Shown: positions 31,973-46,545, counted from the first letter of the stretch. The stretch: 64,000 nucleotides of DNA from Candidatus Omnitrophota bacterium (GCA_028717245.1 JAQUOD010000001.1:149514-213513), one strand, 5' to 3'. Notes: a model not told the origin generated them from the sequence alone. Numbers and translations are program-made.

Positions 31973-33781
31973 TTAACTTATGTTACCTACTTCCTCTTGA
32001 TGTATAAATTTTCTAAAAATATCGGAATTTTGTAATAGCGCCTTAAAACTGCCCTGGTCAATAATCCTGCCGGCATGCATGACATAAATATGGTCGGCCT
32101 GCTCAAGGGTACTGGCGCGGTGCGCCACAAATATAACGGTTAAATCTTTCTTAAAATCCTTAAGCGCCGCATATAGCCTTGCCTCGGTATGGCCGTCTAA
32201 GGCAGAGGTAGCTTCATCAAGAATGAGGATCTGCGGGTCCCTGTATAAAGCCCTGGCTATGCCGATTCTCTGCCTCTGCCCTCCGGATAGTCTGATACCT
32301 TTTTCGCCTACCACGGTTTTAGTTGCCTGCGGTAAATCCTTAATTACAGACTCCAACTGCGCTATCTCAGTTGCCTGTTTAAGTTTCGCAAAATCAATCT
32401 TATCTGCGGCAATACCAAAGGCGATATTCGCCTCTATAGTATCGTCTATAAGAAAAATATGCTGCGGGACATAGCTTATATTTTTACGGTATTCCAGGAT
32501 ATTCCCCGGGTTGACTGCTGCACGGCCATAATACAAAGTGCCTTTTGCTGGAGTTAACAAGCCCATTACGACATCTATTAACGTACTCTTTCCTGCCCCT
32601 GTTTCGCCTGCAAAGGCAATAAATTTATGCTTTGGAATGATAAGGCTGAATTCCTTAAGAATAGGTAAAGCGGCTGTTTTATACTGGAAGGTGATATTTT
32701 CTAAACGGATATCCTCGGGCCCTTGTGGGAACTCCATATTAATAGAAACATCTTCGTTAATTCTCTCTTCGGCAGTATCTTCTTTTAAGATTTCATAAAC
32801 AATATCCAGGTTATAAGAATAATATTTAATGCTATTGTAATTATTGTAGATGTTCTGTACGCAGGGTAAGACCTTCAGTGCCGCCAATCCAAAAACCATC
32901 ATCATCGGGATTAAGTCTGCCGGATTTCTATGAAAATACGCACTTACCAACAGCATCATCAGTGTAAAGGCCAGTAAAACCATATCTAAAACATTGCGCG
33001 GCAAAGTGGAAATAACGTTAAATTTTACCTCGCTGTCAGATGCCGTCATAGATGCCCGGGCATATCTCTCTACAAAAAAGGGCTGTTTATTATATACCTT
33101 GATCTCTTTGACTGCCTGCAGGGACTCAAGCCCAAATTTAAACAGCTGTTCTGAGGCCTTCATTAACTGGAAAGAATAAACTACAATCCTTTTTCTAAGA
33201 AAAAGGTTTGTAGTTAGTAAGGTAAGTGTAAACATAAGCCCCAGGAATAACGTTAAGAATGGATACATAGCAAGGAGTAAGCAAGAAATTGCCAGGAGAA
33301 TAAAGGTGTCGGTAACCATTGATAAGAGGGCCAAGAGAAAATAACTGGAAAATTGGCTTACCGCGGTAGTTGCATTCTTAAATAATATTGCGCTGTTATT
33401 TTGCAAATGAAATGGGTATGGCCTGCTCAAATAAGAGGCCAGGACTTTGGTTGTCAAACGGATGAAAATATTTCCTGCCATCTTTTTTTGTATATACCGC
33501 ACAAAAATATTATATAGTGACTTAAAAACAAACAAACCAAAAGCAACGGCTATTAAAAAGGTAAGAAAAGTATTGTTATCTTTAGCCCCGGATAATTGAT
33601 AAAGCCGCAGGAGATTTTTCGAAGTCTGAATCTTATCCTGGTTCACGAATAGATGCATTATAGGCATGATAATACCGATACCGAATGATTCTAAAGCCGC
33701 AAGGAGTAATGTCCCGAAAAAAACAAATATTATTTTCTTCTTTTCTGATTTTGTAAGGATAAATCTGAGTTTATCTAACAT
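31973..33781 (-). CDS. ABC exporter with fused transmembrane and ATP-binding domains (MsbA-like flippase)
   Basis: Six N-terminal transmembrane helices are followed by Walker A GETGAGKST, the ABC signature LSGGQRQR and Walker B ILILDEATSALD. The length is 602 aa. Confidence 0.9.
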   Translation of the reverse strand: MLDKLRFILTKSEKKKIIFVFFGTLLLAALESFGIGIIMPIMHLFVNQDKIQTSKNLLRLYQLSGAKDNNTFLTFLIAVAFGLFVFKSLYNIFVRYIQKKMAGNIFIRLTTKVLASYLSRPYPFHLQNNSAILFKNATTAVSQFSSYFLLALLSMVTDTFILLAISCLLLAMYPFLTLFLGLMFTLTLLTTNLFLRKRIVVYSFQLMKASEQLFKFGLESLQAVKEIKVYNKQPFFVERYARASMTASDSEVKFNVISTLPRNVLDMVLLAFTLMMLLVSAYFHRNPADLIPMMMVFGLAALKVLPCVQNIYNNYNSIKYYSYNLDIVYEILKEDTAEERINEDVSINMEFPQGPEDIRLENITFQYKTAALPILKEFSLIIPKHKFIAFAGETGAGKSTLIDVVMGLLTPAKGTLYYGRAAVNPGNILEYRKNISYVPQHIFLIDDTIEANIAFGIAADKIDFAKLKQATEIAQLESVIKDLPQATKTVVGEKGIRLSGGQRQRIGIARALYRDPQILILDEATSALDGHTEARLYAALKDFKKDLTVIFVAHRASTLEQADHIYVMHAGRIIDQGSFKALLQNSDIFRKFIHQEEVGNIS

Positions 33782-34922
33782 GGCCTTTCTTATCGGCTAT
33801 TGGAAAAAGCAGTAGATGATTATATATATGTTGGATTTCTTCATAATGTTCAGAAGGGGGCGTGCCTGTAGAACTCACCAAATCATCCATTCTTATTTGG
33901 CATGCAGGAAATAATTTTCTATATAATAACCTTATTCCCCCATACATCCAACTAGTTATCCTAAAATGATTTAAAATATCTTTTATTTCGCATATTAAGA
34001 GCTTCTTTTTTGCAGATTTTATTCCTTTCATATAATTAGCTAAATAAATGGACATGGCATCATCAATCGCTGTCTTTAATTCTTCTATATCTAATGCATC
34101 CGATTGATATTTTTTACTTAGATGTATTAATAAGCCTTCCTTAAATTTAGAATATTTTTCCTTAAAACAACCTTTCTTAATAAAATCATTTAGCCAAAAG
34201 ACTTGCCTATTAGATTTTATATTGCCCCCCTTATCTCTGGCTGTATAAAACACATCTAAACATTTCATTTTTCCATAAATTAAAGTAAGCATAGATAGAA
34301 ATAACTCACCGAATACGGGATCGCTTGTGAATTCTTTTAATTCTTTAAAGATCGTTCTTAAAAAATCACTTCTGTGTACCCCATAGAAAGTAGGCACATA
34401 ATTCAACAAATGATAAATTAACCTTTCTTTTGGTTCAGAAAAGGTAACTGAGGAATGCTGAATTATACGCCCGCGATAAAAATGCTGTTTGTTTTCTTGG
34501 GCGTGTTTTAGCCAAAAGGCAAAACCTAAACCATATACAACTGTGAAATCATCGTTCTTCTTAAGAAAACTTATAGACTGTTCTATGCCTTGCGGGGTTA
34601 TAAAATCATCATCTGCGCATATTACGCAATATTCACTTTTTATATGGCATAATACACTGCATATTTTACTAAGCATGTTAATATCGGCCGGGTATTCATT
34701 AAGATATAATATGCCTAAGCCGGGAAATTGTTCTATAATTTTTTTATTTTGTTTTTTATTTTCACAGGAGCTAGAATCTGCGATTATTATTTTATATTTA
34801 TTACGATCTAAATATTCATTATAATAACTCAGTAGTCTTTTTAAGTAATAAGACCTGTTATAAGTAGGTATCACTATGGTACATCCACCGTTATCGTCTC
34901 TCTTTTTAATTTTCATTCTCAC
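33771..34922 (-). CDS. Glycosyltransferase family 2-like
   Basis: The N-terminal motif CTIVIPTYNRSYYLKRLL is a GT-A motif. An acidic DDD pattern lies around aa 105. The length is 383 aa. Confidence 0.65.
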   Translation of the reverse strand: MRMKIKKRDDNGGCTIVIPTYNRSYYLKRLLSYYNEYLDRNKYKIIIADSSSCENKKQNKKIIEQFPGLGILYLNEYPADINMLSKICSVLCHIKSEYCVICADDDFITPQGIEQSISFLKKNDDFTVVYGLGFAFWLKHAQENKQHFYRGRIIQHSSVTFSEPKERLIYHLLNYVPTFYGVHRSDFLRTIFKELKEFTSDPVFGELFLSMLTLIYGKMKCLDVFYTARDKGGNIKSNRQVFWLNDFIKKGCFKEKYSKFKEGLLIHLSKKYQSDALDIEELKTAIDDAMSIYLANYMKGIKSAKKKLLICEIKDILNHFRITSWMYGGIRLLYRKLFPACQIRMDDLVSSTGTPPSEHYEEIQHIYNHLLLFPIADKKGHVR

Positions 34923-36097
34923 TCGTTAATCTTATCGGAAGCCCTTATTTTATCCCTTAGTATTTCCTCGACTAAATACTCTGCAATACGTTTACTAAAA
35001 TCAGCGGTATAATGGCATGAATCTAAGTATTCATAGCCTTTAATTTGCAGTTTATGTAAATCTAGATATTTGAAAGAATTCAATATATCTGCTTGTAACA
35101 ATAATCGATAACCTTTACTAGCAGCCATATAATACGCCCTTTCTTCTTTTAGGGCCGCCTTGTCTAAAAATAAGTTTTTCTCTAGCGGATAATCGTATAC
35201 AGGAATCGGTTGAAGTACAAATATGCATTTAATATCGTACTGATTACATATTCCTTTAATGGCTCTCCAGTTAAATATCAATTCCTTACTAGCCTGTTCT
35301 ATTGATTTCTCATCGTATTGTAATAAATGATTACCGATTTTATGATTAACTCCTAATAATTTTGATAATTCACCTTTCCAGAAAATATACGGCTCAAATA
35401 CATATTTTTTAAATATTTTTTCATAAGTTAATAATCTTTTATTGCTTTCCTCGGGCCACCTTAGCGCAACTCGACAAAAATCATTCAACCCATCAATAAA
35501 AATTACGTAATCTGGAGTTCTGCCATGCATAATGAGTCTCTCAAGATACCTCTTTTCATATTTAGAATAACCAGAACAGATAGCGTAATTAAAAACATTA
35601 TATAAAAATCCTTTATCTTTTTTATTAAGCCCGTCTTGGACATATGAGGCGATAGTTTCATTATCGGGAAGCCTATATCCCCAAGTTGTAGAACCCCCAA
35701 AAATAAATATATTTTTCTGCTTCTTATCTTGTGAATATCCTCTTTGATTTGCGATTATCCTGTATCCTTCTTTTGAAACATTAACATACCTTGAACGATA
35801 AGATGCCTGGTATTCTCTTGTCGGTTCTATGGGGTATCCCTCTGAATCTTTCAGGATATCCTTAATTTCACCGATGCCTTTTCCTGGATAAACTCTTAAT
35901 AATTGTTGCTTGATACTATTATCCTGCTCTAAATTATTATCCTGAAATATTTTTATTATTTTTGCTTTTCCAGATTGAAAATAATTATAAGGTTTAATAA
36001 ATAAATTCATAAGTAAAATAAAAATCAGGAAGATAAAAATTACTGATCCTACAATATAAGAAGCCCATAAATAAAAACTTAATATTTTCTTTATCAT
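34919..36097 (-). CDS. Membrane-anchored SGNH/GDSL-like hydrolase (putative glycan O-acetylesterase/acyltransferase)
   Basis: There is an N-terminal transmembrane helix. SGNH-like blocks occur in the correct order: FIFGGSTTWG (block I), IDGLNDF (GxND) and LDSCHY (DxxH). The length is 392 aa. Confidence 0.5.
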   Translation of the reverse strand: MIKKILSFYLWASYIVGSVIFIFLIFILLMNLFIKPYNYFQSGKAKIIKIFQDNNLEQDNSIKQQLLRVYPGKGIGEIKDILKDSEGYPIEPTREYQASYRSRYVNVSKEGYRIIANQRGYSQDKKQKNIFIFGGSTTWGYRLPDNETIASYVQDGLNKKDKGFLYNVFNYAICSGYSKYEKRYLERLIMHGRTPDYVIFIDGLNDFCRVALRWPEESNKRLLTYEKIFKKYVFEPYIFWKGELSKLLGVNHKIGNHLLQYDEKSIEQASKELIFNWRAIKGICNQYDIKCIFVLQPIPVYDYPLEKNLFLDKAALKEERAYYMAASKGYRLLLQADILNSFKYLDLHKLQIKGYEYLDSCHYTADFSKRIAEYLVEEILRDKIRASDKINE

Positions 36098-36101: not shown

Positions 36102-36827
36102 CTATTTTATTCTTTTAAGATAACCGTTAGGGCTTGTTGATATATAAAGTTTATTAAAGTCTTTATCTATGATAAAGTCTCTATTTTTCTTTAAAAAATC
36201 AGATATGGCTTCCATCGGACCGTTTTTTCTGTAATTTTCGCCACAAACTCCACTCTTAACTAATGTGGATGTTATAGTATCAAAAACTACGATATACGAA
36301 CCTACATTAACAAACTGTTTGTATAATAATAATTCTTTTAATACGTGTTTTCTATGATGGTTTGAATCCAAACACACTATCGCCCTGGATTCTTTTTTAA
36401 CAAATACCCGTATTGCCTCCATCACCTCATCTGAAGTCGAATCTCCTTGAATAATTTTAATTCTCTTAAATAAAGGATGCGCCTCAATAACTTTTCTATT
36501 ATGTTTTCTAAAATCTATGTCAATACCTATAACTCTTCCTTTCCCCAAAAGCTCAAGCAAAGATGCATAAAAGATTAATCCGCCGCCATGGGCAATTCCT
36601 GTTTCGATAACGAAATCTGGTTTCGCTTTAAATATCAATTCCTGCATGAGCACCATATCAGCGGGAGTCTGGATAACAGGTATGCCAAACCATTCGACCT
36701 CATAATCAATTTTATTTTTAGTTGAGGCCTTAAGCCATTCTAACGCTGCTTTCCGCAGATATTTTTCGTCTTTATTCTCACATCTAGCAACATGTTTTCT
36801 TAAAGACAACATATCCCAATTAATCAT
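36102..36827 (-). CDS. CmcI/cephalosporin-hydroxylase-family class I methyltransferase (sugar O-methyltransferase-like)
   Basis: The motif PDFVIETGIAHGGGLIFYASLL...VIGIDID is typical of the CmcI/rhamnosyl-O-methyltransferase family. The length is 241 aa. Confidence 0.6.
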   Translation of the reverse strand: MINWDMLSLRKHVARCENKDEKYLRKAALEWLKASTKNKIDYEVEWFGIPVIQTPADMVLMQELIFKAKPDFVIETGIAHGGGLIFYASLLELLGKGRVIGIDIDFRKHNRKVIEAHPLFKRIKIIQGDSTSDEVMEAIRVFVKKESRAIVCLDSNHHRKHVLKELLLYKQFVNVGSYIVVFDTITSTLVKSGVCGENYRKNGPMEAISDFLKKNRDFIIDKDFNKLYISTSPNGYLKRIK

Positions 36828-38524
36828 TTGTGTAATAAGGTTTCCCCGCTTGTAGGGGATAAACTAATATGGTATTTTTCCAATAACACCCGCGAATCTT
36901 CCGACTCATCCGCTAATTTACATAACTTTTTAATGGCCCCCTTAGCTTCTCTTGCTTTCCTTTGCCCCTTCAGCGCCTGCCATAAACCCCATTGAGCAAA
37001 CAGATGATTAGGAAAATTTCTGAGTAGACCTCGAAAAGTCAGCTCTGCTTCTTCATATTTTTTCTCTTTTAAAAATTTATTATTAATAAAATTTATACGG
37101 ATATTAGCATCATACTGAATATCTTTTACCTGTTCAGGATTAAAATCGGGGGTCATAACTGAAGAACGGCCATATACATGGTCGCTCATATCTCCTGCTA
37201 AGTAGCCTTTTTCATTGGCTAAGTCGTACATCTCGCTACCTACCAAGGGTGTAAAAATCTTTACTTCTGACCAATCGATGTTTAAATCAACAGCAAATTG
37301 TACAGTATCACGCATCATCTCTATCGTCTCACCAATAAACCCCACAATATAAAATGCTCTAACGCTAATACCATGCTTCTTTAATAACCCGATTTTTTCT
37401 TTTACTAAATTCAGATCTAAATTCTTCTTTAAGATATGTTTTTGGATGTATTTATTTCCACTCTCAATAGCTATAGTACATGATTTCATGCCCGCCATTT
37501 TTAGATTTACGATTGACTCTTCATCTAATTTCCAGATAGCCAGGCCGTTTGGAAATTCTAAATTAAAACGGTCGCGATATTTTTCAAAAAGTGTCTTACA
37601 AAACTGAATTGTCCTGTTGGTTGAAAAATTAAACATATCGTCTTGAATGAGAAGATTATTTATATCATACTTATCAACAAGCCAATCTATATGATTGATT
37701 ATATATCCTATTGAATGGGCACGGATTCTTTTCCCATGTGTACCGTGGGCAGCACAAAAAGTGCAACTCATAGGGCAACCGCGAGTTGTAAAAATTGAGG
37801 CCGATCTCGCAGACTTTTTATTCGTTAAAGAACCTACTCTCTCGGCATCAATAGAATTACCAGTATAATCATCTACCTGGGGCAATAAATCCCATGCCGG
37901 CATGGGTAAACTATCCAAATCCTCAATAATAGCAGCTTTTTTATTTGGTTTATCGAGGCATATTAAATCAACAATATGAGGGTTATTGGCAACTTTCTGG
38001 TCTACGGTATGAGCTTTAATTACATTAAGCAACCAAACAAGCTCTTTCTCGGCTTCGCCTAATATAATATAATCGCAGATACCTGCTTTTAAAATATCGC
38101 GATACATAATTGTAGGATAACTCCCACCTAAAATAATTTTAGTATAAGGATAAATCTGTTTACACCTAATACACATTTTCTCTACGGTGCTCGAGGATAC
38201 ATTAAACAAGCCACTGATTCCTAAAATATCAATCTCGTTACTTTTTAAAACAGTGTCAAAATAGTCTTTAAAGAAATTTGATAAATCATTTTTTTTAAAA
38301 TAATTTTCCCCTCTGCATTTGTAAAATTCCCTATGAAGATCATATATCTGAACTTTATGACCCGCTTCTCTTAATGCACCTGCAAGATATAATATACCCA
38401 GAGGTGCGGCGGGCCTCCAATCTACGCTTTTAGTAAAATCGCAATAACCTTTCTTGATTTTATCAATCTCCTCTTCGAGTATTTTTATTGAAAAATTTGG
38501 TGATACAACCAATAAGATTTTCAT
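36824..38524 (-). CDS. B12-binding domain radical SAM protein with a C-terminal helical/TPR-like extension, paralog 4 of 6
   Basis: The radical SAM motif is GCPMSCTFCAAH. The length is 566 aa. Confidence 0.8.
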   Translation of the reverse strand: MKILLVVSPNFSIKILEEEIDKIKKGYCDFTKSVDWRPAAPLGILYLAGALREAGHKVQIYDLHREFYKCRGENYFKKNDLSNFFKDYFDTVLKSNEIDILGISGLFNVSSSTVEKMCIRCKQIYPYTKIILGGSYPTIMYRDILKAGICDYIILGEAEKELVWLLNVIKAHTVDQKVANNPHIVDLICLDKPNKKAAIIEDLDSLPMPAWDLLPQVDDYTGNSIDAERVGSLTNKKSARSASIFTTRGCPMSCTFCAAHGTHGKRIRAHSIGYIINHIDWLVDKYDINNLLIQDDMFNFSTNRTIQFCKTLFEKYRDRFNLEFPNGLAIWKLDEESIVNLKMAGMKSCTIAIESGNKYIQKHILKKNLDLNLVKEKIGLLKKHGISVRAFYIVGFIGETIEMMRDTVQFAVDLNIDWSEVKIFTPLVGSEMYDLANEKGYLAGDMSDHVYGRSSVMTPDFNPEQVKDIQYDANIRINFINNKFLKEKKYEEAELTFRGLLRNFPNHLFAQWGLWQALKGQRKAREAKGAIKKLCKLADESEDSRVLLEKYHISLSPTSGETLLHK

Positions 38525-38531
38525 CTGTGCT

Positions 38532-39392
38532 TTACCTATTGAAACAGCTATATAATTTAAGTTCCTTAGATAAAAGTTTTCCTTCTAAATACCTATCGAG
38601 CATACCTTTATTAATCAATTGATATATAATTTTTAAATGCGCGGGGGTAAATTCACCACGTAGAAATAATTTTCCTGTTATTGGTGAAATATACGGCTTT
38701 AATGGAATATTTCTTATTAGTGAATCAATCAATTTCAATGCAGGCTGGGCAGCTTGGATAACTGTTTTACAAAATATATCATGTATGGAATCCCCTTTCG
38801 CAAAGACTGTTTTTTGTTGATGATAAATAGCGCCATGATCTACTTGCTGGTCTATCTGGTGTAAAGTTATCCCTATATGGTTGGGATTTTGTAAATAGAG
38901 GGGCCAAAGGAGGGTATCTGAACTTCTGTAGTAAGGGGATAGACCTAGATGTAAATTAATAGCTATACAATCTGTTAAAGCATCCAATACCTTTTTTCCT
39001 ATCATCCCAATCCCAAAAGAAAAGGTTACGGAAGGCCAAACTTTATTTATAAATCTTACTGTTTTGTCAGAGCTTAATGTTTCTGAATTAACATATAAAA
39101 CGTCATTACAGTTATCTAAATGGAACACGTCTTCTTTATAATATTCTGACTCCACTTCATCTCTTGTTTTCAAATGCTTATTTATTAGTTCGATTGCCTC
39201 TTTATCCAATTTATTATTATCATCGTCATACTTTCCAATATAATCCCCCTTGGTAATTTCTTGTATAATTAAACTAGAATTTGGATATTTATCCAAAAGC
39301 TTATTCACAATATACTTATATCTCCTGTTGAGACCTGAAAATATTAGTAATTTTTTAGCTGTTTTTTTCATTTTAGAATCTTTATCATACAC
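38532..39392 (-). CDS. Formyltransferase-family protein (Fmt/ArnA-N-like, sugar N-formyltransferase candidate)
   Basis: The motifs INLHLGLSPYYRSS (NxHxSLLPxxRG-like) and GITLHQIDQQVDHGAI (GxTxHxxxxxxDxGxI-like) are present. The length is 286 aa. Confidence 0.55.
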   Translation of the reverse strand: MYDKDSKMKKTAKKLLIFSGLNRRYKYIVNKLLDKYPNSSLIIQEITKGDYIGKYDDDNNKLDKEAIELINKHLKTRDEVESEYYKEDVFHLDNCNDVLYVNSETLSSDKTVRFINKVWPSVTFSFGIGMIGKKVLDALTDCIAINLHLGLSPYYRSSDTLLWPLYLQNPNHIGITLHQIDQQVDHGAIYHQQKTVFAKGDSIHDIFCKTVIQAAQPALKLIDSLIRNIPLKPYISPITGKLFLRGEFTPAHLKIIYQLINKGMLDRYLEGKLLSKELKLYSCFNR

Positions 39393-39468: not shown

Positions 39469-40608
39469 TCATCTTTTATTTTTATCAAATTCAAGAATTG
39501 CGTCTATCACATACTGTATCTGGCGATCGGTTAACTCAACAAAGAAAGGTAACACCACATACTCCTGCCATATCCGCATAGCAATAGGGATTTGCACTTT
39601 GTAATTCTTATAAAGCGGATGCAGGGGTACTGGCATTGTATGAACACCCGTTGCTATGCCTTTGCGCTGCATAAAAATAATAAATTCGTCTCTTTTATTA
39701 ACCCGGACCATAAAGTCATAATAGGGGGTTGCTAAATCATACGGAAAGGCTGGTTTAACGCTGCTACAATCTTTGATGCCTTCTAAATACTGCTTAATAA
39801 TCTCTATCCTCCTATAATTCATATAATCCAGCTTCTTTAGCTGCGCCAAACCAATTGCAGCCGCGACATCATTCATATTGTATTTATATCCAAGGTCTTT
39901 AATTTCATAATACCAGTGATAGGCATCGGTTTTATCCTTATCCTGGACTTCTTTAAACCGCTGCCAAGTACCTGAACTCATACCGACCTGACGATTACCT
40001 CTGATTTTTTCTATCAATTCCTCGTTGTCCGAAGAAACCATTCCACCATCTCCGGTAGTCAGGCATTTTTTTTCTTCGAAACTAAAACAGTTTACATCTG
40101 CCCAGGTACCGAGCTTCTTACCCTTGTATTGACCTCCAGCGCAGTGTGCGCAGTCAGAAATAACTTTAAGATTGCGACTTCTGGCCCAAGGCATTAATTC
40201 ATCCATAGGAACGGGATGGCCTCCAAAATGTACAGGAATAATCGCTACACAATCATCGCTATATTTCCTTTTCATATCTTCAAGGTCCATCTGGAGGGTC
40301 TCTTCTTCAACATCTACAAATAGAGGTATAAGATTATTATAAAGAGCGGCATTTGCAGTCGAAATAAAGGTCATAGCGGGAACAAACACTTTTTTACCTT
40401 TGGGAAATTTATAAGCCCAGAGCGCTAAGTGTAACGCGGCCGTACCTGAATTTACGGCAACAGAAGCCCTGCAGCCAAGGTATTTACTCCAAGCTATTTC
40501 AAATTCTGCTACTTTAGGGCCATTACCCAACCACGCCCTCTTAAAAATATCTTTGATGTTCTGTAATTCTTGTCTGCCAACGTATGGTTTTACCAGTCTG
40601 ATTTTCAT
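39469..40608 (-). CDS. DegT/DnrJ/EryC1/StrS-family PLP sugar aminotransferase
   Basis: The motifs VISDCAHCAGGQYKGK and FSFEEKKCLTTGDGGM (PLP-lysine region) are present. The length is 379 aa. Confidence 0.9.
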   Translation of the reverse strand: MKIRLVKPYVGRQELQNIKDIFKRAWLGNGPKVAEFEIAWSKYLGCRASVAVNSGTAALHLALWAYKFPKGKKVFVPAMTFISTANAALYNNLIPLFVDVEEETLQMDLEDMKRKYSDDCVAIIPVHFGGHPVPMDELMPWARSRNLKVISDCAHCAGGQYKGKKLGTWADVNCFSFEEKKCLTTGDGGMVSSDNEELIEKIRGNRQVGMSSGTWQRFKEVQDKDKTDAYHWYYEIKDLGYKYNMNDVAAAIGLAQLKKLDYMNYRRIEIIKQYLEGIKDCSSVKPAFPYDLATPYYDFMVRVNKRDEFIIFMQRKGIATGVHTMPVPLHPLYKNYKVQIPIAMRIWQEYVVLPFFVELTDRQIQYVIDAILEFDKNKR

Positions 40609-40647
40609 AGTAACCTTATCTGTTTACTATATTAACTTATTGCATCT

Positions 40648-41211
40648 TTAGAGACTTATTGATCCATAGGTTTTAATAAATTCTTTAAAACTCTTTGCAG
40701 CTGTGTCTCTTTCGGATATAATATGGTTTCTATTTAAAGGCCAATCGATATCTAAATCCAGATCATTCCATTTAATAATACCTTGGCTTTCAGGATTATG
40801 GTAATTATCCATTTTATATAAAACAACGCAACGGTTAGTTAATGAACACATCCCGAGAGCAAAGCCCCGCGGAACATACAACATTTTCTTATTATCTGCT
40901 GAAAGAATTATGCCTTCCCATTCGCCAAAAGTAGAAGATTTTTTTCTTAAATCCACAAATACCTTAAACACTTTTCCCTGCACAACTCGAATAAGCTTGG
41001 TCTCTGAATACGGAGGAAATTGAAAATGCAGTCCTCTTATCGTACCTTTTTTCTTAGAATAAGAATGATTTTCCTGAACCCACTTTCGTTGTAACCCATA
41101 TTTCTTAAACACCTTTTCATCATATGTCCTCATAAAGAACCCCCGCCGGTCTTTTTGAGGTTCTAGTTCAATTTCAAACACTCCCTTGATTTCTTTTTCT
41201 TTTATCAACAT
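40648..41211 (-). CDS. RmlC-like cupin (nucleotide-sugar 3,5-epimerase or keto-isomerase)
   Basis: The motif GVFEIELEPQKDRRGFFMRTY...RGLHFQ is typical of dTDP-4-dehydrorhamnose 3,5-epimerase-like proteins. The length is 187 aa. Confidence 0.75.
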   Translation of the reverse strand: MLIKEKEIKGVFEIELEPQKDRRGFFMRTYDEKVFKKYGLQRKWVQENHSYSKKKGTIRGLHFQFPPYSETKLIRVVQGKVFKVFVDLRKKSSTFGEWEGIILSADNKKMLYVPRGFALGMCSLTNRCVVLYKMDNYHNPESQGIIKWNDLDLDIDWPLNRNHIISERDTAAKSFKEFIKTYGSISL

Positions 41212-41234
41212 ATTATTAGCTATTATCTTACAGA

Positions 41235-42215
41235 TTAATCATTAACATAAATTATCTTACTCCCTTGCGGTTCAAATGCAAAAGAGACTTCTTTTAAATT
41301 TGATAAAGCCTTTCGGACGTTATCCTGCTTATCTTCTTCGCAATAAAATAATAAGAAGCCGCCCCCACCAGAACCCAGAATTTTTCCACCCTCGGCTCCA
41401 GCATCTATCGCTTCTTCATAATAAGAATTTATTAAAGGATTTGTAATATTGCTTGCTAACTTTTTTTTAAGCCCCCATCCCTTATTTAAAATATTTCCGA
41501 ATTCCGAAAGGCGATTACTCTCCAATGCCGCTCGTAGTTCCTTAGACAACCCCACCATTTCCCTTAGGATATGGGAATTATTCTTAATATTTCTTTTCTG
41601 CTCTGTTAATACGCTATCCGACCGGCTATTAATAGCTGTATAGAATAAAAGTAAGTTTTTATTGAGCTCCACTTTTGTCTCATTTTTGAAAATAATCGGA
41701 TCTATAAATACGCTTTGATCAGTATTAAATTGTATATGATTAAAACCGCCATAGGCAGCAGCATACTGGTCCTGTTTTCCAATGGGATGGCCGAGAACAT
41801 CTATTTCAATCTCGCACGCCTCCCTAGCTAACGTCTCAGCAGATACATGCTCTCCCTTGTAAGCGTGAAGTGCATTCAAGGTCCCAACAGTCAGGCTACT
41901 CGATGCCCCTAAACCTGACCCCTCGTGAGCAGGTAACATATCGGACATATAAACAATATCTATACCCTTGGTAATTCCGACCAATCGTAAGGCCTCCCTC
42001 ACAAGGTTATGCTCAATTTTGTCTATATTATCGACGTACTCAATTTTTGAATAACCGACTCGAATACCATCATCAAATTTTTTATTTACTGTTATGTATA
42101 TATACTTATTTATGGCCGTACTCACTACGGCACCGGAATTCTGCTGATAATATTCCTTGAAGTCGGAGCCGCCTCCCACAAAACTCATTCTTAATGGCGT
42201 TCTAGAAATAATCAT
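41235..42215 (-). CDS. GHMP-family sugar kinase (HddA-like heptose-7-phosphate/sugar-1-kinase candidate)
   Basis: The GHMP ATP-binding motif PAHEGSGLGASSSLTVG is present. The length is 326 aa. Confidence 0.8.
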   Translation of the reverse strand: MIISRTPLRMSFVGGGSDFKEYYQQNSGAVVSTAINKYIYITVNKKFDDGIRVGYSKIEYVDNIDKIEHNLVREALRLVGITKGIDIVYMSDMLPAHEGSGLGASSSLTVGTLNALHAYKGEHVSAETLAREACEIEIDVLGHPIGKQDQYAAAYGGFNHIQFNTDQSVFIDPIIFKNETKVELNKNLLLFYTAINSRSDSVLTEQKRNIKNNSHILREMVGLSKELRAALESNRLSEFGNILNKGWGLKKKLASNITNPLINSYYEEAIDAGAEGGKILGSGGGGFLLFYCEEDKQDNVRKALSNLKEVSFAFEPQGSKIIYVND

Positions 42216-42227
42216 TTTAAGAATTAT

Positions 42228-43469
42228 TTAATTAACTTTTAATAAATATGGCTTTTTGGGAAAAGGGATCAAATAATCCCTCTTATATCCATTTAGCTGG
42301 CAATCTGCAATTATTTCATCTTTAAAATTCCAGGCTAATATAAATAGCAGATCGGGTTTGATTCTAAGCCCCTCCTCTATTGACAGTATCGGGATTGAAG
42401 AACCGGGGGAATAAAGCCCTTGTTTTAATCTATTGTTATCAATTATTGCTCGAATATCAGAATTTGTAAAACCGCAAAAGTTTAAATAAGTAGCGCTTCT
42501 CGCCGAAGCCCCGAAACCTACTATTGCTTTACCGCGAAATGCTTTTATTATCTTCCTCGATTCTTTTCTGTGCTTTTTGCATTTGTCTGCAAAGTTTTGC
42601 CAAGATTTTAATTTATTTACCGATAGTCTCTTTTCTTTATCCACCAACTGATTATATCTTAAACTCTTTTTCCGCTTATTCTTTGAGAAATACATCACAT
42701 AGGAACCGCCGCTGATAGGACTGAGGTCAATACGAAACGGAAATAAATTGAATTTATTAAGTAAATACTCCATAGTCTTAATTGAAAAATAACACAGGTG
42801 TTCATGGTATATTGAATCGTAATGTAAATCCTGCAGGATTTTTCCAGCGTAATGAAACTCAATAATGCCTATCCCGTCTTTTGCCAGACATCTGTGGATA
42901 CTGCGAATCACATCAGTAAGGTCGCTGACATGCGGAATAACATTCCTGGCAATAACTACTTTTGCTTCGCCGTAATTAGATTTTATTTGACCCGCCATCT
43001 TATGATCCCAATATCTATTTAGTGTTTCTATCCCGGACTTTTTAGATAACCCGGCAATATTTTTTGCGGGCTCAATCCCTAATACCCTATATCCTCCTTT
43101 TACAAAAGGCTTAAGAAAAGTGCCATCGTTAGAGGCAATCTCTACAATTAGCTCCTCTGGTTTAGCTTTTGTTAACCCAATTGTTCTTTTATAAAAAGTT
43201 TCTGCGTACTTTTGGGTTGTTTCAGATATTCCGGTAACCCAAACATAATTATTAAACAAAATTTCCTTCTTCAGTGTTTCTTTTAATTGAACCAATGAAC
43301 AGTTTGGACAAAAAACTAATGTTAAAGGATATCTCCTTTCTAAATCGCTAATCCTTTTTTTAAATGAATTAGCCAAGGGTTGATTACCCAAAAAAAGCAA
43401 AGGAACAATATCTTTAGACCCGCAAATCCTACAATTCTTAATCCGCTTGTATTCTTTATCTAGAGCCAT
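42228..43469 (-). CDS. NDP-sugar C-methyltransferase-like class I SAM methyltransferase with an N-terminal zinc-ribbon and a C-terminal C-methyltransferase domain
   Basis: The N-terminus is CRICGSKDIV...CPNCSLVQ (4-Cys). A central class I domain follows. The 413-aa length and architecture match TylC3/EvaC-type sugar C-methyltransferases. Confidence 0.65.
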   Translation of the reverse strand: MALDKEYKRIKNCRICGSKDIVPLLFLGNQPLANSFKKRISDLERRYPLTLVFCPNCSLVQLKETLKKEILFNNYVWVTGISETTQKYAETFYKRTIGLTKAKPEELIVEIASNDGTFLKPFVKGGYRVLGIEPAKNIAGLSKKSGIETLNRYWDHKMAGQIKSNYGEAKVVIARNVIPHVSDLTDVIRSIHRCLAKDGIGIIEFHYAGKILQDLHYDSIYHEHLCYFSIKTMEYLLNKFNLFPFRIDLSPISGGSYVMYFSKNKRKKSLRYNQLVDKEKRLSVNKLKSWQNFADKCKKHRKESRKIIKAFRGKAIVGFGASARSATYLNFCGFTNSDIRAIIDNNRLKQGLYSPGSSIPILSIEEGLRIKPDLLFILAWNFKDEIIADCQLNGYKRDYLIPFPKKPYLLKVN

Positions 43470-44499
43470 TTAACCAGTTTAAATTCTTATCTATCTTTTT
43501 TTCTCTAAGAAGATATTCCATCTGCTTAAGCCTATTACAGGCTTTTCCTCTGAATTGCTGCTCGCTAAAATTATTTTTCTTAAAAAACTCAATGAGCTCC
43601 TTGCCTCCTTTATCTAAATCGCATTCTGGATAAAAATATTCGCCTAAGACATTAAATATTTTCTTAAAACTTATTTTATAAGTTCGCGCATCCGTTCCGT
43701 GCTCACCGGTGAATACCAGGGTACTACCGGGAACAACCTGTTGCGCTGCCTCAGCGAGCTGACGGATAGTAAAGTTGCCGTTCTTAATCCCGATATTAAA
43801 GGACTCGCCTGAGATTAAATGCTGGGGTGCCCTTAACCCAGCGATGAATGCCTGTGACGCATCCCTTACGTGAATGACAGGCCGCCAAGGGGTCCCGTCA
43901 CTTTTAATTTCAATTTTACCCGTAGTATATGCGCAGGCAACCAGGTTATTGAATACGATATCGCAACGAAACCTGGGGCTAGGGCCAAATACAGTAGAAG
44001 GGCGCATGCAAACTACCGTAAAATCACTGGAATTCAAATTTTTTAATTCACATTCGGCATCCCATTTGGTTCTGGCATAAGCAGTTAAAGGGTTCTTCGT
44101 ACTTTTATCCTCATCTAACTCTTCATCCGTATTAGAGATACCATACATACTCTGAGATGAAGCATAGACAAACCTTTTAATGCCTGCTTTTTTTGCGTAA
44201 TTAGCTAATTTCATTGTCCCTTTAAAATTTATCTCTTCTGTCAGGTACGGATCCAACTGGCCCAGGGGGTCATTAGAAAGTGCTGCTAAATGGATTATCG
44301 CATCTATCCCATCTAAATCTTCAGTGCTTACATCCCGGATATCCTTTTTTTTCTGTTTTATCGGCTGATGCAATGCGCAGATTTCAGAGCCGGCATAATA
44401 ATCCGTATCATATCCGGTAACGTTATATCCAAGCCCCAATAGCATTTCTGTTAATACTGCTCCGATATAGCCCCTATTACCGGTTACCAAGATATTCAT
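43456..44499 (-). CDS. NAD-dependent nucleotide-sugar epimerase/dehydratase (extended SDR)
   Basis: The sequence has ILVTGNRGYIGAVL and the YARTK YxxxK motif. The length is 347 aa. Confidence 0.8.
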   Translation of the reverse strand: MNILVTGNRGYIGAVLTEMLLGLGYNVTGYDTDYYAGSEICALHQPIKQKKKDIRDVSTEDLDGIDAIIHLAALSNDPLGQLDPYLTEEINFKGTMKLANYAKKAGIKRFVYASSQSMYGISNTDEELDEDKSTKNPLTAYARTKWDAECELKNLNSSDFTVVCMRPSTVFGPSPRFRCDIVFNNLVACAYTTGKIEIKSDGTPWRPVIHVRDASQAFIAGLRAPQHLISGESFNIGIKNGNFTIRQLAEAAQQVVPGSTLVFTGEHGTDARTYKISFKKIFNVLGEYFYPECDLDKGGKELIEFFKKNNFSEQQFRGKACNRLKQMEYLLREKKIDKNLNWLNGSR

Positions 44500-44508
44500 C
44501 TACAAGCT

Positions 44509-44516
44509 CCCCCCCC
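44509..44516. repeat. Homopolymeric C8/G8 tract. It lies on the minus strand in the Shine-Dalgarno position of the CDS at 43456-44499.
   Basis: The minus-strand read is ...AATGGGGGGGGAGCTTGTAG-ATG. G8 is unusual in sequence of about 35% GC. Confidence 0.85.
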
Positions 44517-44531
44517 ATTAGAAACATTATT

Positions 44532-45077
44532 TTATTTATAGTCTTTTGCTATAGCTATTTTTTCAACTACAGCAGTCAACCAGATATTATGAACCGACTC
44601 TACGATATTATAAACCTTACTATCAACCCAGAAATTAATATCCCCCATCTTTCTCAAGGGATTATCGGCATTAAACCCGGATAAGGTAATCAGGTTAGCT
44701 CCCAGTTTTTTAGCTTTCTGCGCCGCATTAATAATATTCTGGGATTCTCCGCTGCTACTTATCAAAATTACGGCGTCGTCCTTATCCGCGTAACATTCAA
44801 TAGCCCGCTCCAGCCATTTCTCGTACCCATAATCATTGGCAAAACAAGTAATCAAATCCGCCTCATTAAAGTTTACTGAACGCACCTTGGCATTTTTAGT
44901 CAAATCAACGGATATGTGGCTGGCTATCGCTGCGCTCGCCCCGTTACCGGATATTATTACTTTCTTTCCTCTTTTATTTACGCTTAATATTAAATCAACG
45001 GTCTTATTTAAAAGCCCGGTATCTACACTATTTAATCCCTGGTTAATTTGATTAAAATAATCCTTAAAAAAGTCCAT
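44532..45077 (-). CDS. SIS-domain sugar-phosphate isomerase (GmhA-like sedoheptulose-7-phosphate isomerase)
   Basis: The motifs VIISGNGASAAIASHISVDL and ILISSSGESQNIINAA are typical of GmhA. I place the start at the internal ATG (45077) to avoid an 83-nt overlap. Confidence 0.75.
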   Translation of the reverse strand: MDFFKDYFNQINQGLNSVDTGLLNKTVDLILSVNKRGKKVIISGNGASAAIASHISVDLTKNAKVRSVNFNEADLITCFANDYGYEKWLERAIECYADKDDAVILISSSGESQNIINAAQKAKKLGANLITLSGFNADNPLRKMGDINFWVDSKVYNIVESVHNIWLTAVVEKIAIAKDYK

Positions 45078-45081
45078 CTGC

Positions 45082-45837
45082 TCACCGTCCTTTAAAATAA
45101 TTATTGGGAATAGACTCAAAGCCTCTTTCGGCAACTGCCGATTCAAAATTTTTAAGGCTATCAAGATTAGTAATATAGTAGTATTGTTTATCGGTAAGAT
45201 AGGCCGTAAGCTGCTTTTTTAAAATCAGCCGGGGAAGGATATGCTCTTCAAAGGATATATTTTCATTTATGCCAAGGTTTAAAATATTTTTATTCACAAT
45301 AAAATAACCGATATCAACACCATTGAGGCCGCTGGATTTTCTGCTCTTATTATAAGCCCTGACAAGTTTATCTTTTCCTACGCTGATATTATTTTCATAA
45401 CCGTATTCTCCGGTTCCTCTTTTATTGGTAAATACGGTTGTCAGGACTTTGGTCTTTTTTTCATCGTATAAATTCAACATCTGCTTCAATTCCATCGGCC
45501 AATAATTATCACCGTAAAGAAGTAAAAAATAATTATCCAATAAGCGGCGGGCGTTCAATAGCCTCCTGCCGGTCTGGTCTTCGGCTCTTCCGGGAAAACA
45601 TTCGATTTCTATTCCTTCATGGGCCAATTTCTCGTATCTTTTAATAATAGCCTCTCCCTTATAACCCGTTAATATCAAAATATGCTTAATCCCGGCCTGG
45701 ATTACGGAATTAATCAGGTAATCCAAAAACGGGGCTCCATTAACAGCAACTAAAGGCTTGGGGATTTCATCCGTTAACGGCCTTAATCTTTCTCCTCTGC
45801 CGCCGGCTAATACAACAGCTTGATTTAACTTAATCAT
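45082..45837 (-). CDS. Sugar-1-phosphate nucleotidyltransferase (HddC/GmhD-like)
   Basis: The motif AVVLAGGRGERLRPLTDEIPKPLV is the G-loop of NTP-transferases. I place the start at the internal ATG (45837). Confidence 0.75.
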   Translation of the reverse strand: MIKLNQAVVLAGGRGERLRPLTDEIPKPLVAVNGAPFLDYLINSVIQAGIKHILILTGYKGEAIIKRYEKLAHEGIEIECFPGRAEDQTGRRLLNARRLLDNYFLLLYGDNYWPMELKQMLNLYDEKKTKVLTTVFTNKRGTGEYGYENNISVGKDKLVRAYNKSRKSSGLNGVDIGYFIVNKNILNLGINENISFEEHILPRLILKKQLTAYLTDKQYYYITNLDSLKNFESAVAERGFESIPNNYFKGR

Positions 45838-46531: not shown

Positions 46532-46545
46532 TTGCCTAAAATTTC

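Follow-up and report, generated by a model that had tools for sequence, protein, structure and literature searches.

A putative operon for a C-methylated amino-heptose in a Candidatus Omnitrophota metagenome-assembled genome

INTRODUCTION

In the capsular GDP-heptose route of Campylobacter jejuni, the GmhA, HddA, GmhB and HddC steps are followed by the C4-dehydrogenase Cj1427, the C3/C5-epimerase Cj1430 and the C4-reductase Cj1428; Cj1427 is reported to work by a ping-pong mechanism in which alpha-ketoglutarate is converted to L-2-hydroxyglutarate (PMC10680097). The L-heptosamine of septacidin is made with the oxidase SepI, the C5-epimerase SepJ, the C3-epimerase SepA and the 4'-aminotransferase SepG (PMC9978623). 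[quoted passage not shown] Several actinomycete pathways (TylC3/MtmC of mycarose, TcaB9 and KijD1 of nitrosugars, EvaC) start from dTDP-glucose via RmlA and RmlB and lead to 6-deoxy or 2,6-dideoxy hexoses.

The locus described here resembles the C. jejuni system in its predicted four-step heptose activation with a GHMP kinase, C4 oxidation keeping the C6 hydroxyl, cupin epimerase and C4-processing enzyme, and also in its short-chain dehydrogenase/reductase (SDR), 32% identical to the structure (6VO6) that we take to be Cj1427. Unlike the C. jejuni system, its core enzymes fall under the curated HddA, GmhA and HddC cut-offs, it has no GmhB and its nucleotide may not be GDP. The C. jejuni repertoire in PMC10680097 has no C-methyltransferase, aminotransferase or formyltransferase, whereas all three types are predicted here. 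With septacidin the locus would share C4 oxidation, epimerization and transamination of a heptose to a 4-amino-4-deoxy-heptose, but that route has no C-methylation and belongs to actinomycete secondary metabolism rather than to a surface-glycan locus. Common to the actinomycete dTDP pathways are a C-methyltransferase with zinc ribbon, SAM and C-terminal domains (E values of 1e-46 to 2e-62) and its association with an RmlC-type epimerase and a DegT enzyme around a 4-keto group, although the module has no RmlA or RmlB, an SDR devoid of dehydratase residues and a heptose core. In contrast to the HldE-type route, activation here goes through a GHMP kinase (the alpha route) and an HddC-like transferase, with CDP no more than a hint; we know of no tailoring of CDP- or UDP-beta-heptoses. 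Our literature search found no description of this tailoring combination on a heptose, so that the novelty would lie in the combination, each enzyme type being familiar.

RESULTS AND DISCUSSION

Organization of the locus

The window, that is, the whole stretch of 64,000 nt that was analyzed, comes from a Candidatus Omnitrophota MAG. It contains seven contiguous minus-strand ORFs, in which no gap or overlap exceeds 39 nt, and the Pfam domains of all seven agree with the families that a previous sequence-only reading had named. The same arrangement was found in an NCBI MAG contig and in an independent Logan assembly, indicating that it is not an assembly artifact. The genes and their downstream neighbors are as follows:

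45082..45837, minus strand: sugar-1-phosphate nucleotidyltransferase (NTP-transferase), HddC-like, unfused and without GmhB domain (PF00483, E 2e-21)
44532..45077, minus strand: SIS sugar-phosphate isomerase, GmhA-like (SIS_2, E 3e-14)
43456..44499, minus strand: extended SDR, predicted NDP-heptose C4-dehydrogenase, Cj1427-like (Pfam Epimerase, E 2e-44)
42228..43469, minus strand: SAM-dependent sugar C-methyltransferase of the TylC3/TcaB9/MtmC type (Methyltransf_13, 5e-19; Methyltransf_23; Methyltransf_14, 3e-35)
41235..42215, minus strand: GHMP kinase, HddA/WcbL-like, predicted heptose-7-phosphate anomeric kinase (GHMP_kinases_N and GHMP_kinases_C)
40648..41211, minus strand: RmlC-type cupin, predicted C3/C5 (or C5) epimerase of an NDP-4-keto sugar (dTDP_sugar_isom, E 1e-63)
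39469..40608, minus strand: PLP-dependent DegT sugar aminotransferase, predicted to act at C4 (PF01041 DegT_DnrJ_EryC1, E 9e-93)
38532..39392, minus strand: formyltransferase-like protein, predicted N-formyl/N-acyl transferase for an amino sugar (PF00551, 29.5 bits)
36824..38524, minus strand: cobalamin-binding radical-SAM enzyme, candidate extra methyltransferase (B12-binding and Radical_SAM)
36102..36827, minus strand: CmcI/rhamnosyl-O-methyltransferase-like protein, candidate heptose O-methyltransferase (PF04989, E 2e-70)
31973..36097, minus strand: GDSL-like protein, GT2 glycosyltransferase and ABC exporter (Pfam)

The mechanical ORF of the NTP-transferase runs to 45882, with a probable start at M16 ('MIKLNQAVVLAGG', position 45837) that matches its homologues and the upper limit set by the sequence-only reading. 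That of the SIS protein runs to 45164, and its likely start at 45077 gives 181 aa, as in public assemblies. The genes are interleaved and translationally coupled, with a 14-nt overlap between those of the SDR and C-methyltransferase and the kinase gene placed between those of the C-methyltransferase and RmlC. No promoter or terminator signals above chance level were found across the operon. Most likely, the seven genes and their downstream neighbors form one co-transcribed pathway for an activated, tailored heptose.

Proposed pathway

We favor, with some confidence, a pathway in which the operon would make an NDP-heptose and then oxidize, C-methylate, epimerize, aminate and probably formylate it. 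What we observed directly are the protein families, their catalytic motifs and the co-occurrence of the genes. The GmhA-like isomerase would convert sedoheptulose-7-phosphate to glycero-manno-heptose-7-phosphate, the HddA-like kinase would phosphorylate C1, a phosphatase encoded outside the window would take off the 7-phosphate and the HddC-like transferase would yield the NDP-heptose. The Cj1427-like SDR would then oxidize C4 with no 6-deoxygenation, the TylC3/TcaB9-type enzyme would C-methylate beside the ketone, most likely at C3, the RmlC-type cupin would epimerize C5 (also C3 if acting before methylation) and the DegT enzyme would transaminate C4. The VioF-like enzyme would probably N-formylate the amine, and more methyl groups may come from the B12-radical-SAM and CmcI-like methyltransferases, which are co-conserved. 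The predicted product is an NDP-4-formamido-4-deoxy-3-C-methyl-heptose derivative, to be used by the neighboring GT2 for a surface glycan; to our knowledge, no known glycan structure matches this sugar. All substrates, the step order, the stereochemistry and the nucleotide are inferred from computational evidence.

The probable heptose core

The kinase matched heptose-7-phosphate kinases of the PDB (3K85, 1e-45; WcbL 4USK, 1e-38; C. jejuni 4N3O, 3e-37) much better than fucokinase (1e-13) or galactokinase (3e-10). For the NTP-transferase, the best PDB match was 6JQ8 (1.4e-13), the HddC of the Yersinia pseudotuberculosis 6-deoxy-manno-heptose pathway, compared to 4e-6 for RmlA, and the top 13 PDB matches of the SIS protein were all GmhA phosphoheptose isomerases (best, C. 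jejuni 1TK9, 2.4e-16). The three proteins are closer to HddA/WcbL, HddC and GmhA, respectively, than to other solved proteins; hence, the clustering with hexose-specific clades that the sequence-only reading had named as evidence against a heptose was not what we found.

All three are nevertheless far under the equivalog cut-offs (157 bits against 600 on NF049969 HddA, 81 against 209 on TIGR00441 gmhA and 75 against 300 on NCBIfam HddC), so that the starting sugar could differ. The trio might then be a sister family acting on the phosphate of some other ketose, whether a hexulose, an octulose or a further heptulose isomer, and the sugar would not be a glycero-manno-heptose. The unusual conservation of the kinase family, with 45 to 87% identity in at least 599 genome loci of bacteria and archaea, points to a distinct clade and would fit this alternative, as would several module architectures with no GmhB within 8 to 10 kb on each side. 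We regard it as distinctly improbable, because the nearest solved proteins of the trio are heptose enzymes (for the kinase and the SIS protein, by a wide margin), a phosphatase with what is presumably the GmhB signature is fused or adjacent to many family members, and the SDR is closest to the putative Cj1427 structure.

Gene neighborhoods also point to the heptose. Relatives of the kinase, from many bacterial and archaeal phyla, usually adjoin GmhA-like, NTP-transferase and GmhB genes: of 52 kinase-family genome loci that are 15 kb or longer, NTP-transferase homologues were present in 35, SIS homologues in 33 and GmhB-type domains in 30, the last being fused to the NTP-transferase in 19 cases. 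The fused HAD domain, found for example in loci L003, L005, L014, L018, L091 and L094, contains DRDGVIN, TNQ, CPH...CxCRKPxPGM and GDDxxD, which we take to be the GmhB signature, and reached 175 bits with NF006506, a GmhB model whose cut-off is 178. The association of the kinase, GmhA-like protein and NTP-transferase (often GmhB fused) across phyla supports a genuine heptose route. A profile built from 45 GmhB domains detected no GmhB encoded in the window. The ORF at 27703-28461, which the sequence-only reading had called a HAD phosphatase and offered as a possible source of the GmhB step, is present but makes an unconvincing candidate for this role, with an E value of 0.12 against that profile, a place in a different sub-cluster and 17.6 bits on PF00702 (cut-off, 26.4).

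The SDR as a predicted C4-dehydrogenase

The best PDB match of the SDR was 6VO6/6VO8 (1.1e-31), deposited under a generic name and presumably the GDP-heptose C4-dehydrogenase Cj1427. The protein keeps S115 and Y141-x3-K145 and has no dehydratase Asp/Glu (or Asp/Lys) acid/base pair, and 'SSQSMYG' replaces the 'TTDKVY'/'SSDKAY' of CDP-glucose dehydratases. The absent pair and the closest structure indicate that it is not a 4,6-dehydratase; of the dehydratase/epimerase assignment made previously, only the SDR Epimerase family stands. The enzyme is probably of the C4-dehydrogenase type, without 6-deoxygenation, and the C6 hydroxyl would be retained. Its orthologues (42 to 75% identity) occur in heptose modules, and in L091 one adjoins an L-2-hydroxyglutarate-oxidase-like gene (264 bits), a further likeness to C. 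jejuni that fits the ping-pong mechanism of Cj1427.

C-methyltransferase, cupin and aminotransferase

The C-methyltransferase has the N-terminal zinc ribbon expected from the sequence-only reading (C13, C16, C54 and C57, with Methyltransf_13), and its solved relatives (MtmC 4RV9, 1.8e-62; TcaB9 3NDI, 1e-50; 5T64, 'Sugar 3-C-methyl transferase', 1e-46) all act on dTDP sugars and were all deposited as 3-C-methyltransferases. The cupin, with H62, K72, Y132 and D169 intact, passes the RmlC equivalog cut-off (TIGR01221, 198 bits against 155.75) and is of the RmlC lineage (5e-46), unlike the Cj1430/DdahB lineage of C. jejuni GDP-heptose epimerases (1e-19 to 5e-14). Its orthologues in heptose and CDP-glucose clusters scored 195 to 304 bits, compared to 134 to 142 for RmlCs of rmlBDAC-like gene sets. 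The DegT enzyme was closest to ArnB (1MDO, 2e-53), and its K181 aligns with the Lys of the ArnB 'SFHAIK' motif. In three heptose modules that differ in gene order, L090 (85% identity), L094 (79%) and L091 (74%), an orthologue comes after the cupin, L094 having the full set of GmhB fusion, C-methyltransferase, CmcI and B12-radical-SAM.

Related modules, all from uncultured organisms, carry these tailoring genes in varied orders. In Thermoplasmata (L003/L004) the order is kinase, SIS, SDR, NTP-transferase/GmhB, C-methyltransferase, RmlC and SDR, Fusobacteriaceae (L005) have the same set minus the C-methyltransferase, and L010-L014 are modules with tailoring genes from Omnitrophota, Acidobacteria and Dehalococcoidales. 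Promethearchaeota L106, as well as L104 and L105, show NTP-transferase, SIS, SDR, C-methyltransferase, cupin, SDR, kinase and CmcI. C-methyltransferase orthologues were found in L003, L010-L012, L014, L089, L090, L094 and L104-L106. RmlA and RmlB were absent near L003-L005, L010-L014 and L104-L106, and the recurrence of SDR, C-methyltransferase, cupin and aminotransferase orthologues in such heptose modules of unrelated taxa makes it most likely that these enzymes tailor a heptose, as had been proposed. A cassette appears to have been exchanged in the window, where RmlC, DegT, formyltransferase and B12-radical-SAM stand in place of a cupin and 4-reductase pair.

The RmlC equivalog score of the cupin, nearest to dTDP RmlCs, and the dTDP-sugar relatives of the C-methyltransferase would also suit two unrelated, interleaved pathways, namely, a plain NDP-heptose core (SIS, kinase, NTP-transferase and perhaps SDR) and a C-methyltransferase/RmlC/DegT set acting on a 4-keto-6-deoxyhexose linked to dTDP or CDP, the genes for its synthase and 4,6-dehydratase lying elsewhere. 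Distant RmlC-DegT pairs do occur in CDP-glucose clusters (L095 and L099), and the window has an RmlD-like gene, 17 kb away, and a dehydratase-type SDR at 10903-11874 ('STSEIYG'). However, it has no RmlA/RfbF-type transferase, and SDR323 (176 bits against 365) and the RmlD-like protein (186 against 224) are below cut-off. Moreover, in L003-L006, L014, L090, L091, L094 and L104-L106 the NTP-transferase and C4-oxidizing SDR of the heptose module are the sole ones beside the C-methyltransferase, cupin and DegT genes. Together with the coupled gene layout, this makes two pathways unlikely.

For the single heptose pathway, the nucleotide would be GDP by analogy, but context hints at CDP. RmlC-DegT pairs with 52 to 62% DegT identity, the nearest non-heptose relatives, follow a glucose-1-phosphate cytidylyltransferase and a CDP-glucose 4,6-dehydratase in L095 and L099, and the closest non-heptose relative of the SDR (L096) also sits behind CDP-glucose genes including such a cytidylyltransferase. 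Such a likeness to CDP-glucose (RfbF/RfbG) clusters suggests a CDP handle; of the 'GDP-heptose-type' label given earlier, the heptose part agrees with the nearest solved enzymes, GDP being a candidate nucleotide.

Downstream genes

The seven genes reported earlier stand, but the pathway probably continues past the aminotransferase, where the sequence-only reading had ended it (39469), to about 36102, taking in the formyltransferase, B12-radical-SAM and CmcI-like methyltransferase genes. The formyltransferase-like protein passes the PF00551 cut-off (26.1 bits), and its best PDB match was VioF (4YFV, 1.9e-8), presumably a 4-amino-sugar enzyme, followed by other sugar N-formyltransferases. The catalytic residues are intact, N146-x-H148 and D185 aligning with VioF, and an orthologue (480 bits) lies close to DegT in L089.

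The VioF match bears on whether a heptose pathway might run with other chemistry (the SDR as an epimerase, methylation at C5 as in NovU or DegT action at C3), giving a different branched amino heptose. Among its solved relatives, the DegT enzyme matches proteins acting at C4 (ArnB and perosamine synthase) and at C3 (QdtB) with similar E values, the C-methyltransferase sequence has no regiochemical marker for C3 or C5 methylation, the amination site is likewise not marked in the sequence, and the short cupins of L104 and L105 are FdtA-like by Pfam, that of L106 having only a weak dTDP_sugar_isom match. We consider such chemistry quite unlikely, since the window has no 3,4-ketoisomerase or 2,3-dehydratase for a keto shift, VioF points to a 4-amino sugar and the solved C-methyltransferase relatives are all 3-C enzymes.

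The B12-radical-SAM enzyme reached the cut-off of none of the NCBIfam models and is co-conserved with the module (1,027 bits in L090 and 777 in L094; between kinase and CmcI in L106), making it a candidate further methyltransferase of this sugar. CmcI-like homologues are located in or beside heptose/C-methyltransferase modules L011, L012, L089, L090, L094 and L104-L106, and the protein is a candidate O-methyltransferase of the heptose. The GDSL-like, GT2 and ABC exporter genes, probably for transfer and export, keep their order in the sister locus L090 (585, 271 and 928 bits, respectively).

Gene content and layout of the locus

The window holds a single glycan locus of about 55 genes on the minus strand (about 37% G+C), with the housekeeping genes secG, tpiA, and pgk at its downstream end. 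All seven genes that the sequence-only reading had assembled into a nucleotide-heptose module with deoxysugar-style tailoring were found, with the Pfam families it had stated. They are listed here together with the genes that follow downstream:

45082-45837 (probable start; the ORF extends to 45882), minus strand, NTP-transferase (HddC-like)
44532-45077, minus strand, SIS protein (GmhA-like)
43456-44499, minus strand, SDR
42228-43469, minus strand, C-methyltransferase (C-MT) with a four-Cys zinc ribbon
41235-42215, minus strand, GHMP kinase
40648-41211, minus strand, RmlC-type cupin
39469-40608, minus strand, DegT aminotransferase
38532-39392, formyltransferase-like protein, downstream of the range first described
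36824-38524, B12-radical-SAM gene, co-conserved with the module
36102-36827, CmcI-like methyltransferase, co-conserved with the module

This gene order was found both in an NCBI MAG contig and in an independent Logan assembly, and database entries for proteins identical to the kinase and the C-MT come from Candidatus Omnitrophica/Omnitrophota MAGs. Neighboring genes of the seven-gene set overlap by up to 14 nt or lie at most 39 nt apart, and a scan of positions 33000 to 48000 detected promoter-like sites (57 versus 58 expected) and terminator-like sites (13 versus 9.7 ± 2.8 expected) at chance level. Both observations fit one transcript that includes the upstream nonulosonic-acid genes. The pathway probably extends downstream beyond the seven genes.

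Kinase, SIS protein, and NTP-transferase

The three putative core proteins scored far below the equivalog cut-offs of the curated NCBIfam/TIGRFAM models (the cut-offs used here unless Pfam is named). The GHMP kinase reached 157.4 bits on HddA (NF049969; cut-off of 600), the SIS protein 81.3 bits on GmhA (TIGR00441; cut-off of 209.45), and the NTP-transferase 75.1 bits on HddC (NF049965; cut-off of 300), so that the trio is a sister family outside these equivalogs. Among solved structures, the best matches of the kinase were heptose-7-phosphate kinases (3K85, 1.3e-45; WcbL of B. pseudomallei, 1e-38; C. jejuni, 3e-37). The comparison with fucokinase (1e-13) and galactokinase (3e-10), which the sequence-only reading had proposed as a check on its assignment, left HddA as the nearest family by far. 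The 13 best PDB matches of the SIS protein were all GmhA. For the NTP-transferase, likewise proposed for comparison with RmlA, the best full-length PDB match was a Yersinia pseudotuberculosis protein of the 6-deoxy-manno-heptose pathway (1.4e-13), which we take to be HddC; RmlA was more distant (4e-6).

The heptose reading of the core is decided by the genomic context of the kinase family. Its members share 45 to 87% identity and occur in at least 599 genome loci of many phyla, bacterial as well as archaeal; 80 of these loci were inspected. Among the 52 annotated loci of at least 15 kb with this kinase, a homologue of the NTP-transferase was present in 35, one of the SIS protein in 33, and a GmhB-type phosphatase domain in 30, fused to the NTP-transferase in 19. 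The fused domain scored 175 bits on a GmhB equivalog (cut-off of 178) and has the motifs of the GmhB signature. The joint presence of an isomerase, an anomeric kinase, a 7-phosphatase, and a nucleotidyltransferase points to the four-step NDP-heptose route, and we consider it highly likely that the core trio belongs to a heptose pathway.

No GmhB was detected in the window, either by phmmer (E value of ≤1e-3) or with a 45-domain GmhB profile, whose best match was the HAD protein at 27703-28461 (E value of 0.12, 6.4 bits). The proposal that this protein supplies the GmhB step was abandoned, as it reached only 17.6 bits on PF00702, under the Pfam cut-off, and had no NCBIfam match. It lies in a seemingly unrelated sub-cluster (25532-29643) with a HisC/CobD-like aminotransferase (hisC, 257 bits; cut-off of 277), an HpcH/HpaI aldolase-like protein, and two CTP_transf_3 cytidylyltransferases, which probably makes a separate CMP- or CDP-activated decoration. 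Comparison loci from other genomes with an unfused NTP-transferase (L010, L011, L090, and L104 to L106) had no GmhB-type phosphatase within 8 to 10 kb. Removal of the 7-phosphate must come from elsewhere or be dealt with differently. The loci with the unfused architecture include an archaeal (Promethearchaeota) contig.

In many relatives, the NTP-transferase/GmhB protein has three domains, the C-terminal one being a P-loop domain of the PRK/uridine-kinase family (L003:11639-13465, L094:6434-8245, and also L060, L087, L069, and L047); in L091, the P-loop domain is a separate gene (L091:5696-6325). This domain scored 54 bits on uridine kinase (cut-off of 180) and is absent from the window.

Predicted functions of the tailoring enzymes

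The SDR, described as a dehydratase/epimerase in the sequence-only reading, is an extended SDR with the catalytic residues Ser115 and Tyr141-x3-Lys145 that lacks the acid/base pair for 4,6-dehydration, and a role as 4,6-dehydratase was rejected on this ground. From these residues, its product should be a 4-keto sugar that retains the C6-OH. The corresponding motif is SSQSMYG in the window, NTNSGYG in 6VO6, and TTDKVY or SSDKAY in the CDP-glucose 4,6-dehydratases of related loci. Its best solved relative, 6VO6/6VO8 (1.1e-31), leads by ten orders of magnitude at an identity of just 32%; this protein is probably Cj1427, which in C. jejuni is the C4-dehydrogenase for GDP-heptose, and the depositor's name agrees with the Cj1427 annotation. 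An AlphaFold model of the SDR from the single sequence was unusable (mean pLDDT of 43).

Cj1427 regenerates its bound NAD+ by conversion of alpha-ketoglutarate to L-2-hydroxyglutarate in a ping-pong mechanism (PMC10680097). In the heptose module of L091, the SIS and SDR genes flank the gene of an FAD enzyme (L091:2314-3447) that scored 264 bits on L-2-hydroxyglutarate oxidase (cut-off of 299) and has homologues in L065, L088, and, weakly, L070. Since Cj1427 makes L-2-hydroxyglutarate, such a neighbor of an SDR orthologue fits its mechanism, and the FAD enzyme would serve to recycle the L-2-hydroxyglutarate that a Cj1427-type dehydrogenase forms. We found no literature description of an L-2-hydroxyglutarate-oxidase-like gene inside a heptose module.

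The C-MT has the three-part architecture of TylC3/TcaB9, with PF08421 (68.6 bits), PF13489 (52.4 bits), and PF08484 (121.7 bits) all exceeding their cut-offs and zinc-ribbon cysteines at C13, C16, C54, and C57. Full-length matches were MtmC (1.8e-62), TcaB9 (1e-50), and a structure with the deposited name sugar 3-C-methyl transferase, 5T64 (1e-46). Going by the names under which these relatives were deposited and by the overlap of its gene with that of the putatively C4-oxidizing SDR, we infer that it methylates C3 of an NDP-4-keto sugar. The cupin passes the RmlC model TIGR01221 (198.3 bits; cut-off of 155.75), has the catalytic residues H62, K72, Y132, and D169, and matches dTDP RmlCs at 5e-46 versus 1e-19 to 5e-14 for the C. 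jejuni GDP-heptose epimerases.

The DegT protein, a predicted aminotransferase, has the full-length fold (PF01041 over residues 11 to 371, E value of 9e-93). Its nearest solved relative is ArnB (2e-53), and K181 aligns with the lysine of the ArnB Schiff-base motif SFHAIK; a ColD-type 3-dehydratase, with a histidine at this position, was thereby rejected. The formyltransferase-like protein is barely over the Pfam cut-off of PF00551 (29.5 versus 26.1 bits), and its N-terminal 110 residues had no match. Its N146, H148, and D185 align with the Asn-His-Asp triad of its best match, VioF (4YFV, 1.9e-8), a 4-amino-sugar N-formyltransferase, and an orthologue lies close to DegT in L089. Directly after the DegT orthologue, L090 (7058-8299) and L089 (5649-6899) also carry a second, divergent TylC3-like methyltransferase (148 to 178 bits to the window C-MT), which is absent from the window.

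Tailoring genes inside heptose modules

Orthologues of the SDR (350 to 612 bits), C-MT (351 to 706 bits), and cupin (195 to 304 bits) were found inside heptose modules of other genomes. In Thermoplasmata (L003/L004), the order is KIN-SIS-SDR-NTP/GmhB-CMT-RmlC-SDR (KIN, GHMP kinase; NTP, NTP-transferase; CMT, C-methyltransferase); a Fusobacteriaceae module (L005) has no C-MT, and further modules with tailoring orthologues occur in Omnitrophota, Acidobacteria, and Dehalococcoidales (L010 to L014). Three sampled contexts of the closest C-MT homologues (L104 to L106), one of them a Promethearchaeota MAG, all read NTP-SIS-SDR-CMT-cupin-SDR(~300 aa)-KIN-CmcI. Neither RmlA nor RmlB was found in any of these loci. 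DegT orthologues follow the cupin in heptose modules of three different gene orders: in the sister locus L090/L092 (85% identity), in L094 (79%; KIN-SIS-SDR-NTP/GmhB/P-loop-CMT-cupin-DegT-CmcI-B12rSAM, the last being a cobalamin-binding radical-SAM enzyme), and in L091 (74%; without C-MT). The GDSL-like, GT2, and ABC-exporter genes have the same order in L090 as in the window. From this synteny, the tailoring enzymes probably act on a heptose.

Judging from the orthologous gene orders, the arrangement in the window looks as if a cassette had been swapped in the widespread NTP-SIS-SDR-CMT-cupin-reductase-KIN-CmcI module. Cupin and reductase would have been lost as a pair, and RmlC-DegT-formyltransferase-B12rSAM inserted between kinase and CmcI, turning the final 4-reduction into a 4-amination. 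We lean towards a single pathway overall; its exact product, which might be NDP-4-formamido-4-deoxy-3-C-methyl-heptose, is a more tentative proposal.

The alternative of two separate pathways in the window appears quite improbable. The window has no RmlA/RfbF-type transferase, its other NTP-transferase being of the CBS-domain type from the nonulosonate pathway, and no RmlA or RmlB equivalog was found in it. The dehydratase-type SDR at 10903-11874 scored 176 bits (cut-off of 365) and the RmlD-like gene at 22806-23708 scored 186 bits (cut-off of 224), and a complete dTDP-rhamnose pathway was rejected on these grounds. The RmlCs of the rmlBDAC-like gene sets in L050 and L064 scored 134 to 142 bits versus 195 to 304 bits for the orthologues in heptose and CDP-glucose clusters, and fell outside the clade of the window cupin in a rough neighbor-joining tree; a genomic association of this cupin with RmlA, RmlB, and RmlD was not found.

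Carrier nucleotide

Model scores of the NTP-transferase did not discriminate between HddC (75 bits), glucose-1-phosphate cytidylyltransferase (70 bits), and mannose-1-phosphate guanylyltransferase (87 bits). GDP would be the carrier by analogy. More distant RmlC-DegT pairs (DegT 52 to 62% identical) follow a glucose-1-phosphate cytidylyltransferase that passes its equivalog cut-off, in L099 also a CDP-glucose 4,6-dehydratase (493 bits; cut-off of 278), and in L096 an SDR of the window's type (42% identity). In trees, the proteins from CDP contexts were sister to, or intermixed with, those of heptose modules. Sugar-nucleotide enzymes that move to another sugar often stay with the same nucleotide, so that CDP-heptose, hinted at by this context, is a serious possibility. 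CDP- and UDP-heptoses are known solely as beta-anomers from HldE-type enzymes (PMC11573728).

Relation to described heptose pathways

As listed in PMC10680097, the C. jejuni repertoire comprises a dehydrogenase, a dehydratase, epimerases, a C3-dehydratase, reductases, and mutases, with no methyltransferase and no aminotransferase. The sole heptosamine pathway that we found in the literature is that of septacidin, which works post-attachment (PMC9978623). Apart from this amination, the heptose tailoring that we found described consists of oxidation, epimerization, deoxygenation, and reduction, all on GDP-heptose, from C. jejuni and a handful of further pathogens; full-text searches returned nothing relevant on an NDP-heptose C-methyltransferase or aminotransferase, on 3-C-methyl-heptose, or on other heptosamines. 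The predicted chemistry is ordinary, the scaffold unusual, and the module widespread among uncultured lineages, on a basis that is computational throughout.

A broader picture, which we think unlikely to hold in full, is that the NDP-heptose pathways of this kind form an unrecognized family that has been transferred widely and occurs in uncultured Omnitrophota, Chloroflexota, Acidobacteria, Thermoplasmata, and Promethearchaeota. It would use CDP as the carrier, where the known GHMP-kinase (alpha) route uses GDP, and perhaps handle the 7-phosphate differently where the NTP-transferase is unfused. TylC3-type C-methylation would perhaps be followed by further methylation by B12-radical-SAM enzymes. 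Within this family, the window would represent a less common branch, in which transamination and N-formylation replace the final 4-reduction and give a branched heptosamine for which we found no described biosynthesis. 

Should the single pathway favored above be real, C-methylation, amination, and N-formylation would join the chemistry of nucleotide-activated heptoses. Exchange of cassettes would then have recruited enzymes of the deoxysugar tool kit (TylC3-type, RmlC-type, and DegT) to a scaffold of seven carbons, and a heptose module of high conservation would be moving between bacteria and archaea. The enzymes would be candidates for chemo-enzymatic synthesis of new heptoses. CDP- and UDP-heptoses were recently found to act as innate-immune agonists, a finding on which the question of the carrier bears.

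Other features of the locus

Two nonulosonic-acid gene sets are present. The first (45830-53966), complete and of the legionaminic/neuraminic type, encodes an SDR, a LegC-like aminotransferase (413 bits; cut-off of 420), a formyltransferase-like protein, NeuB (517 bits; cut-off of 400), NeuC (486 bits; cut-off of 236), a B12-radical-SAM enzyme, a CBS-domain NTP-transferase, and a PseF-like CMP-transferase; the formyltransferase-like and B12-radical-SAM genes are unusual in such an operon. The second, partial set (59095-63991) contains DegT, GFO/IDH/MocA, CTP_transf_3, and NeuB genes and is interrupted by the window end. Cobalamin-binding radical-SAM enzymes are encoded six times in the locus, once as a fusion with a class I methyltransferase, and a SPASM radical-SAM enzyme is encoded once (8128-9615, 19587-21896, 29507-30484, 30517-31965, 36824-38524, 47634-49022, and 57716-59098), an abundance that suggests extensive sugar methylation at unactivated positions.

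Four large ORFs had no significant Pfam family (53979-55856, 55860-57695, 23705-25516, and 62127-63218, of 625, 611, 603, and 363 aa, respectively) and may be novel glycosyltransferases or polymerases. Towards the downstream end lie the genes for a fusion of a GT4-family initiating transferase with a CoA_binding_3/PglD_N-like domain (6245-8068), for a Wzy_C O-antigen-ligase-like protein (5026-6273), and for a protein of 754 aa that contains a spermine-synthase domain (2696-4960), followed by pgk, tpiA, and secG.
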